Source of the DNA: a virus
Taxonomy: Duplodnaviria; Heunggongvirae; Uroviricota; Caudoviricetes
Reading direction: 5' to 3' (one strand)
IMG/VR virus record: IMGVR_UViG_3300029473_000092
Length of the DNA: 9,056 nt
Shown: positions 4,349-4,401 of the stretch, one piece after another
Numbering within the stretch: the first letter of the stretch is position 1
How the letters are laid out: each line of letters begins with the position of its first letter
Made by a program: the position numbers and the translations under genes
The notes under the pieces: generated by a model
Seen by the model: only the letters and a program-made list of their open reading frames with translations
Told to the model about the DNA's origin: nothing
Databases searched by the model: none

Positions 4349-4401
4349 TGCTTTGGCGGTACCAGTTTGTACACTTGCTTCCGGCTGGTACCGCTCTTTT
4401 T
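4349..4401 (+). ncRNA. DicF-like prophage small RNA candidate ending in a strong intrinsic terminator
   Basis: 10-bp stem GCGGTACCAG/CTGGTACCGC (4356-4365 with 4385-4394), 19-nt loop, then TCTTTTT (4395-4401). Core TTTGGCGGTACCAGTTTGTAC resembles the DicF core as I recall it (TTTGGCGGTATCAGTTTTAC). Position, downstream of the repressor in the early operon, matches dicF in Qin. Family assignment is from memory and unverified. Confidence 0.4.

Follow-up and report, generated by a model that had tools for sequence, protein, structure and literature searches.

A terminator hairpin related to that of DicF closes sRNA-17 at the end of a prophage early-left leader

The hairpin at 4349-4401 of the window (the whole 9,056-nt stretch of DNA analyzed here) is the transcription terminator that closes sRNA-17, a published small RNA of 193 nt, and it is not a member of the DicF family. 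The object is already known, as it is the same locus as sRNA-17 with essentially the same sequence; what is new is the common descent with the DicF terminator, the location at the end of an early-left leader, and the tRNA-shaped family to which the body of the RNA belongs. The initial annotation had proposed a DicF-like small RNA at this site, and part of that proposal stands: the hairpin is a relative of the DicF terminator, and an RNA does end there. The other part does not, as the hairpin has no match to the DicF model, lacks the DicF seed and shows no better-than-chance predicted pairing with ftsZ. The element is a known sRNA that is DicF-like partly by descent, and not by predicted function.

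The window corresponds to an immunity region, that of an mEp460/SfV-like lambdoid prophage in E. coli. A segment of 411 nt surrounding the hairpin is found at 100% identity in many E. coli chromosomes, the hairpin region is matched in 2894 of 5426 complete E. coli genomes, and phage mEp460 is 98.3% identical to the hairpin region. A cI-like prophage repressor gene lies at 3124-3816 (+ strand); Pfam finds helix-turn-helix and Peptidase_S24 domains in its product, and records with an identical or near-identical sequence list it as an XRE family regulator or a prophage repressor. This gene is separated by a 722-nt gap without credible genes from yfdP (4539-4901, + strand), the first gene of the early-left operon, which is followed by yfdQ (DUF2303) and yfdR (HD/YfbR-like); the gene names come from the annotation of identical E. 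coli records and the domains from Pfam. The cro-like gene and the replication genes are oriented opposite to the repressor gene and yfdPQR. The initial annotation had described a gene-poor stretch downstream of cI, and this description holds, with no gene called by PGAP between the repressor gene and yfdP in an identical E. coli chromosome and no Pfam match for the mechanical open reading frames of the gap. No N-like gene is present, and downstream of the hairpin yfdP, yfdQ and yfdR are found instead of dicB.

Directly after the repressor gene, a consensus scan finds a hairpin of terminator-like form, AGCCACC-CGAA-GGTGGCT followed by TTTTCATT (3837-3854, + strand), a putative terminator. Two OL-type operator repeats of one repeat family (D1) come next, TTGCATATCTCGCAA at 3872-3886 and TTGCATAATGCGCAA at 3896-3910, and they resemble the OR repeat TTGCTTAACGCGCAA at 3089-3103. 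As these repeats adjoin the repressor gene, an early-left promoter is placed upstream of the leader, at about 3896-3924, with a putative -35 element TTGCAT (3896-3901), a putative -10 element TATCTT (3919-3924) and a predicted start near 3931; both hexamers are weak, and the site was not flagged by the consensus promoter scan. Counted from this putative promoter, the gap would form a leader some 470 nt long, with the hairpin at its end. An early-left leader downstream of the repressor gene is the same kind of place as that of DicF in Qin, in agreement with the position that had been claimed.

The 5' leader of yfdP, on the other side of the hairpin, holds a long inverted repeat (repeat I2; 4402-4490, + strand) with 25-nt arms that are 88% complementary and 39 nt apart. 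Together with this repeat, a second small hairpin at 4501-4520 fills the yfdP leader. Both elements are inherited with the terminator hairpin and yfdP as one mosaic block, and both are missing from the CPS-53 remnant of K-12. Some phages are homologous to the window only from 4353 on, that is over the hairpin and the yfdP leader, and the P1-like phage JL22 has only 4195-4343 in common with it. Such mosaic joints fit the view of the hairpin as one member of a wider group of terminators.

The hairpin itself reads tgcTTTGGCGGTACCAGTTTGTACACTTGCTTCCGGCTGGTACCGCTCTTTTT. RNAfold predicts a 12-bp stem (4356-4367 with 4383-4394; 10 Watson-Crick and 2 G-U pairs) that closes a CU-rich loop of 15 nt, and UCUUUUU lies directly 3' of the stem and runs to 4401. 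Alone, the hairpin has a predicted energy of -20.8 kcal/mol, compared with -15.9 kcal/mol for the K-12 DicF terminator. The earlier call of a strong intrinsic terminator is borne out by this stem and U-run, and the published 3' RACE places an RNA end at 4400, within the U-run; the core shared with DicF and the homologous terminators and flanks described below point the same way. A simple consensus terminator scan missed the hairpin only because the scan admits loops of 3-8 nt. There is little variation of the hairpin among its relatives, and covariation support for it is therefore thin.

An RNA ending at this hairpin has been described experimentally. The sRNA-17 of E. coli K1 RS218 is a 193-nt RNA of an mEp460-like prophage, defined by 5' and 3' RACE and detected by Northern blot (Sun et al. 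2020, Front Microbiol 11:574833, PMC7719688). All 16 oligonucleotides published for it fit the window with 0-1 mismatch, including the full-length primers at 4207-4239 (+) and 4369-4400 (-), both with 0 mismatches, and the Northern probe at 4269-4318, with 1 mismatch. Orientation is given by the 5' RACE primers and the Northern probe, which run antisense to the + strand; the fragment published as the 'promoter' corresponds to 3958-4207, and the supplementary alignment of PMC7719688 shows the same sequence as the window. From this mapping sRNA-17 occupies 4208-4400 on the + strand, with both ends from the RACE of that one paper, and its 3' end is the U-tail of the hairpin. A small stable RNA that ends at the terminator, as had been anticipated, is thus on record from primers, RACE and Northern blot; its length of 193 nt departs from the 50-70 nt that had been expected.

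The best explanation of these observations, and in our judgment a probable one, is that a Rho-independent terminator on the + strand ends the early-left leader, that processed leader transcripts are sRNA-17, and that the hairpin shares a module with DicF. Transcription would start in the early-left (PL-type) control region, or at a leader-internal promoter as suggested by Sun et al., and would proceed toward yfdP-yfdQ-yfdR across the structured modules at 3958-4140, 4141-4212 and 4208-4342, most of it stopping at the hairpin. Cleavage at the base of a closing stem would then release a stable RNA with both ends protected by structure. This RNA would consist of two modules, the tRNA-shaped frame (4208-4342) and the terminator hairpin with its CU-rich 15-nt loop, and the terminator may contribute to the near-silence of yfdPQR in the lysogen.

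With regard to the 5' end, PMC7719688 proposes an ArcA-controlled promoter within 3958-4207 and a primary transcript end, and a consensus scan of 3958-4207 finds no good sigma-70 match. The RACE 5' end at 4208 (PMC7719688) is the first base of the 10-bp closing stem of the frame. A variant of the same frame lies directly 3' of dicF in Qin, closed by GAATTTTGTGATG/CATCACAAAATTC, and the 72-nt form of DicF has a 3' end made by RNase III (PMC5069750), which by our own reading of the coordinates falls in the GAATTTTGTGATG/CATCACAAAATTC stem. The position of 4208 at the base of the stem and the RNase III end in the Qin stem together suggest that closing stems are processing sites, and the 5' end of sRNA-17 may be the product of such RNase processing.

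The published sRNA-17 mutant bears on the role of the terminator. According to PMC7719688, yfdP rises from 0.49 reads in the wild type to 47 reads in the mutant (96-fold) and yfdR from 0 to 8.5 reads, and these are the two most changed genes; mapping of the oligonucleotides of that paper shows that the deletion removed only 4233-4350, the inner part of the frame, which was replaced by a CmR cassette, with the terminator left intact. Since the terminator was kept, the cassette would point at yfdP and the genes are immediately downstream, the rise of yfdP and yfdR is read most simply as read-through and not as regulation in trans. We take the cat gene to face yfdP from the usual orientation of the pKD3 cassette relative to its priming sites. 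A polar effect is likely behind yfdP and yfdR, the top 'up-regulated targets'. That yfdP is up 96-fold despite an intact terminator means either that the terminator is leaky to strong upstream transcription or that the rise has another cause. The published sRNA-17 phenotypes need to be re-read with this in mind, given that the RNA is the end of a prophage early-left leader and its strongest 'targets' may be polar.

The relation to DicF is clearest in the 5' arm of the hairpin, which the initial annotation described as nearly identical to the DicF core. This description proved accurate. Local alignment of the window with K-12 dicF (L003 2883-2935) gives TTTGGCGGTA[T/C]CAGTTT[-/G]TAC, with 19 of 20 bases identical and one gap, or written out, TTTGGCGGTACCAGTTTGTAC against TTTGGCGGTATCAGTTT-TAC. 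The score is reached by 5 of 500 dinucleotide shuffles of the window, and the 17-mer TTTGGCGGTAYCAGTTT, shared with the 5' arm of DicF, has a single occurrence in the window and is found in 0 of 200 shuffles. When the rest of the dicF surroundings (about 400 nt 5' and 170 nt 3') was compared with the window gap, nothing else aligned.

Homologous flanks were found in a sibling prophage (L228), in which the end of the repressor gene, the operators and the leader closely match the window. Behind this leader, L228 has a close match, over about 100 nt, to the part of Qin that immediately precedes dicF; the match takes in the precursor hairpin GTTGTCAGGTTGACCATACGC..AGTGACAAC and leads into a hairpin of the window type. 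Over this stretch the only large difference between L228 and Qin is a 19-nt gap at TTATCAATTTTCTGGTGAC, which holds most of the DicF 5' seed, and L228 has no match to the Rfam DicF model. At further loci there are terminators built as TTGGCGGT...ACCGCC(C)TTTTTACA with variable, mostly CU-rich loops, and the upper stems of these terminators covary (GGCGGTGAT/ATCACCGCC, GGCGGTCGG/CCGACCGCC and GGCGGTTA/TAACCGCC). None of the related terminators in L007, L008, L028, L071, L078, L091 and L094 is recognized by the Rfam DicF model. The shared base TTGGCGGT...ACCGCC with its U-run, the shared 5' arm and the homologous flanks in sibling prophages argue for real common descent, and on these sequence grounds we consider that the window hairpin and DicF descend from one terminator module. 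Within this wider group of terminators, DicF is a specialized member and the window hairpin a further one.

The variable loops of this group could be taken to mean that the hairpin acts in a DicF-like manner on other targets, with the CU-rich loop UUUGUACACUUGCUUCC as a seed for purine-rich ribosome-binding sites of host or phage and the body of sRNA-17 as a mere stabilizing scaffold. In DicF, ftsZ and pykA are both targeted through this loop region (PMC5069750), the related terminators keep the stem base and vary mostly pyrimidine-rich loops (UUCCCUU, GUCCUUAC), and about 48 transcripts are altered in the sRNA-17 mutant, with some phenotypes complemented (PMC7719688). We nevertheless regard this reading as unlikely, since the changed genes may be indirect, as PMC7719688 itself states, the mutant keeps both the CmR cassette and the terminator, and the pairing sites of the loop within the window are at chance level (best -23.7 kcal/mol, against a shuffle mean of -22.8). 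A terminator that ends the early-left leader, with sRNA-17 as the processed product, remains the preferred account.

DicF is characterized by processing through RNase III and RNase E, by Hfq binding and by filamentation when over-expressed, and its single-stranded 5' seed, UUUCUGGUGA(CG), is used for xylR. If the hairpin were a working DicF, it would give a processed RNA of 50-70 nt that blocks the ribosome-binding site of ftsZ, and with it cell division, and that also acts on xylR and pykA. The 19/20 identity of the 5' arm core, the early-left operon position and the Qin-homologous flanks in the sibling prophage are compatible with this, as is the Rho-independent terminator with its GGCGG/CCGCC base that forms the 3' end, but the remaining evidence makes it very improbable. 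The Rfam DicF model (RF00039) has no match at gathering score in the whole window, nor at E<=10 in a 451-nt slice (4150-4600), although the same tool scores K-12 dicF at 76.7 bits against a gathering score of 48; the covariance-model comparison thus went against the initial proposal. A search of the whole window for the 5' seed TTTCTGGTGACG, allowing up to 2 mismatches, gave no match. The detected RNA is 193 nt long, and although the lambdoid early-operon position matches that of DicF, with Qin-like flanks in L228, the window has the tRNA-shaped frame in the place of those flanks and no dicB behind the hairpin.

The pairing with ftsZ leads to the same conclusion. DicF pairs with ftsZ through its 3' region (PMC5069750), which sits in the terminator loop, and this loop is a different one in the window hairpin. 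Against ftsZ -30..+12, the RNAduplex energy of the window hairpin is -14.9 kcal/mol, a value that 98% of shuffles reach, and that of DicF is -30.9 kcal/mol, to which only 1.7% of shuffles come; a full-length RNAduplex run against a long ftsZ segment was uninformative. Hence the ftsZ pairing that had been suggested is at chance level. Repression of ftsZ is not expected of a hairpin with another loop and without the DicF 5' seed, the effect on host cell division that had been considered is not predicted, and a division block in the manner of DicF should not be ascribed to this prophage.

Two further structured modules precede sRNA-17 in the leader. The first (3958-4140, + strand) is a conserved element of roughly 180 nt with 79-88% identity to unrelated phages and an RNAalifold consensus of -44 kcal/mol. 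It is common to phage P1 (trnI-ban spacer, L006 2501-2685), phiV10-like and other phages (including L007 2501-2745), and in two phages it stands directly after or before tRNA genes. Its last hairpin shows compensatory changes (CCTGG/CCAGG, CCGG/CCGG, CCTCG/CGAGG), and the element has no Rfam match. In phage P1 a sequence with 1 mismatch in 12 to the DicF seed TTTCTGGTGACG, namely TTTTCTGGTGATGAC (L006 2702-2716, upstream of ban), comes just after the copy of this element, apart from the 'dicF-like region' that heads the same operon.

The second module (4141-4212, + strand) is a stem-closed unit with the 5' strand GCAACGATGAGGGCAT and the 3' strand GTGCTCTCAGCGTTGT, identified by sequence comparison with L007, L009 (1130-1215) and L126, with the pairing read by eye. 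Immediately behind its 3' strand (..GTGCTCTCAGCGTTGTG), phiV10-like phages have tRNA-Arg and the window has the tRNA-shaped frame. The stem recurs in JL22 and L126, where it encloses segments with perfect T-arm sequences (GGTTCGAATCC), accompanied by weak, sub-threshold matches to tRNA-Sec and mascRNA. L126, a contig of a sibling prophage, also holds three tRNA genes at 10252-10520, followed by STnc100 (175.6 bits) and AgvB (anti-GcvB), the latter at gathering score, and so provides a further cluster of prophage non-coding RNAs.

Searched with Rfam at gathering score, the whole window contains only two known RNAs, both away from this leader. These are the C4 antisense RNA (1677-1764, - strand, 83.6 bits) and isrK (1789-1865, - strand, 67 bits), a pair that recurs in sibling prophages. 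Both lie inside a 383-codon open reading frame (1074-2225; a Rha family regulator according to PGAP), overlapping its Ash-domain part, and the true start of this protein may be downstream of C4/isrK.

The body of sRNA-17 is a tRNA-shaped frame (4208-4342, + strand) that was delineated by pattern scans, covariation and RNAalifold. It comprises the closing stem P1 (4208-4217 with 4333-4342), the hairpin P2 (4220-4224 with 4231-4235, loop GGCUGA), a variable hairpin P3 (about 4249-4314) and the hairpin P4 (4315-4319 with 4329-4333, loop AGAUCAGCA). The segment 4196-4241 is about 90% identical in many unrelated phages, including HK620 and phages of Klebsiella, Erwinia and Cronobacter, and pattern scans of a viral collection found at least 120 loci for the 5' half, GTGRTGAATGCGCAGGCTGATGCGC, and at least 120 for the 3' half, CCGGAGATCAGCRCCGGYCACCAC (frame loci L011-L160 and L294-L346). 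The frame common to these loci has a closing stem GUGGUG/CACCAC that is often extended, a linker AAU, the hairpin GCGCA-GGCUGA-UGCGC, and a 3' hairpin GCCGG-AGAUCAGCA-CCGGC that abuts the 3' strand of the closing stem. The center, of 9-369 nt, is swapped wholesale between copies, in one case for a whole tRNA. The window copy fits this consensus in its P1, P2 and P4 stems, its AAU linker, its GGCUGA and AGAUCAGCA loops and its variable center. The two loops contain complementary bases, GCUGA at 4226-4230 and UCAGC at 4323-4327, which are invariant among the frame copies, and a loop-loop pairing between them is possible.

The stems of the frame are well supported. Across 70 distinct frame copies among the matches listed, 94.3% of cells are paired, compared with 26-52% in slid controls. 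Double-sided changes are seen in 14 of 24 pairs (3.9 in shuffles), and on all five measures used, each of 500 shuffles falls short of the observed value. RNAalifold predicts P1, P2 and P4 independently, and the G-U pairs seen at several positions agree with a + strand RNA. Given this, it is scarcely credible that the stretch serves to encode small minus-strand proteins, the hairpin being incidental: open reading frames of 122, 51 and 47 codons do lie on the - strand (3913-4281, 4193-4348 and 4323-4466), and the first and third are annotated in mEp460 (JQ182728; mEp460_037 and mEp460_036), but they have no Pfam match and are uncalled by PGAP in identical chromosomes, the module stems covary and contain G-U pairs, which the opposite strand would show as C-A mismatches, the module centers are exchanged for unrelated inserts of 9-369 nt, and the Northern probe and RACE detect + strand RNA (PMC7719688), so that mEp460_037 and mEp460_036, which overlap the RNA modules, are probably not genes.

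The frame is widespread, and some of its copies are associated with tRNA genes. An exact 25-mer of its 5' half is present in 53 of 185,579 species genomes, from several proteobacterial classes (including Enterobacterales, Aeromonas, Janthinobacterium, Massilia, Marinobacterium and Lysobacterales), and in some of these genomes it lies within rows of tRNA genes. The idea that the frame always belongs to tRNA arrays was rejected: only 29 of 180 listed loci hold a tRNA, and 20 of the 189 viral frame copies listed are within 200 nt of one, in which case the tRNA is on the same strand in 30 of 35 instances. A terminator-like hairpin follows the frame within 160 nt in 76 of 136 distinct listed copies, compared with 90 of 408 random windows, and 'frame plus terminator' is on this basis a recurrent unit.

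No known RNA family accounts for the frame. ARAGORN finds no tRNA gene in the window, the Rfam tRNA (RF00005) clan and YrlA have no match at E<=10 in 4150-4600, and permissive Rfam searches of 4150-4600 and 3900-4260 return only chance-level matches (mir-3617, snoRNAs, a partial rydB). Two candidate relatives were discarded, rydB, as K-12 rydB has only the hairpin GCCGGAGAUAAGCGCCGG in common and lacks the frame, and the Y RNA YrlA, for which there was no Rfam match; Ro60 is not known from E. coli. The frame family is not in Rfam 15, and no paper was found for its motif sequences in a full-text literature search. It is tempting, though still tentative, to see in the sRNA-17 body an undescribed class of very strongly conserved phage RNAs, with a four-way junction, potentially pairing loops and an exchangeable cargo of 9-369 nt, which together with DicF-type CU-loop terminators would form a modular system to make, process and stabilize small RNAs in early and late leaders, with DicF as one specialized product. 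In any case, the frame is a widespread tRNA-shaped module that no RNA database lists and that is found beside DicF-type terminators. Should such modules prove to be functional units, they would account for the way in which many temperate phages obtain stable small RNAs from leader transcripts.

Compared with the published description, the account given here places sRNA-17 in a different light. In PMC7719688, sRNA-17 is a new sRNA in its own right, under ArcA control and without relatives in Rfam; that account is without the early-left leader context, the DicF-type terminator and the tRNA-shaped body, and without the remark that its deletion keeps the terminator and a CmR cassette. Likeness to the tRNA cloverleaf is found in the 7-10-bp end stem set on a 5-bp arm and in a second 5-bp arm after a linker of 2-3 nt, and the loops of the sRNA-17 body could touch in the manner of D and T loops. 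Unlike in tRNA, these loops lack the T-loop consensus, and the position of the anticodon arm is taken by a variable insert of 9-369 nt. The stable RNAs of the tRNA cluster of phage T4 are tRNA-like non-coding RNAs, as is the bacterial Y RNA YrlA. The sRNA-17 body resembles such RNAs in its cloverleaf-like four-way junction and in the location of some phage copies in same-strand rows of tRNA genes, but it differs from YrlA in having no Rfam YrlA match, and most copies do not adjoin tRNA genes.

The 'dicF-like region' of phage P1 (leader of the ban operon, NC_005856 68791-68892) is similarly arranged, with a non-coding leader, a Qin-like precursor hairpin, a terminator and a repressor-controlled promoter, and the ban operon also carries the element found at 3958-4140 of the window. 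The P1 region differs in its terminator stem, CCCATCTTCGGGTGGG, and like the window hairpin it is not matched by the Rfam DicF model. The closest comparison is with DicF itself (RF00039; Qin prophage, E. coli K-12). Both are intrinsic terminators with the base GGCGG...CCGCC, a U-run and the 5' arm TTTGGCGGTAYCAGTTT, both lie in an early-left operon downstream of the immunity genes, and a copy of the tRNA-shaped frame adjoins each, on the 3' side of dicF in Qin and on the 5' side of the window hairpin. The window hairpin differs from DicF in its loop and 3' arm and lacks the UUUCUGGUGA 5' seed and complementarity to ftsZ, and the mature RNAs are of 53-72 nt for DicF and 193 nt for sRNA-17, with no dicB downstream in the window. 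The likenesses and differences together present DicF as one among a larger number of related phage terminators whose loops are exchangeable.
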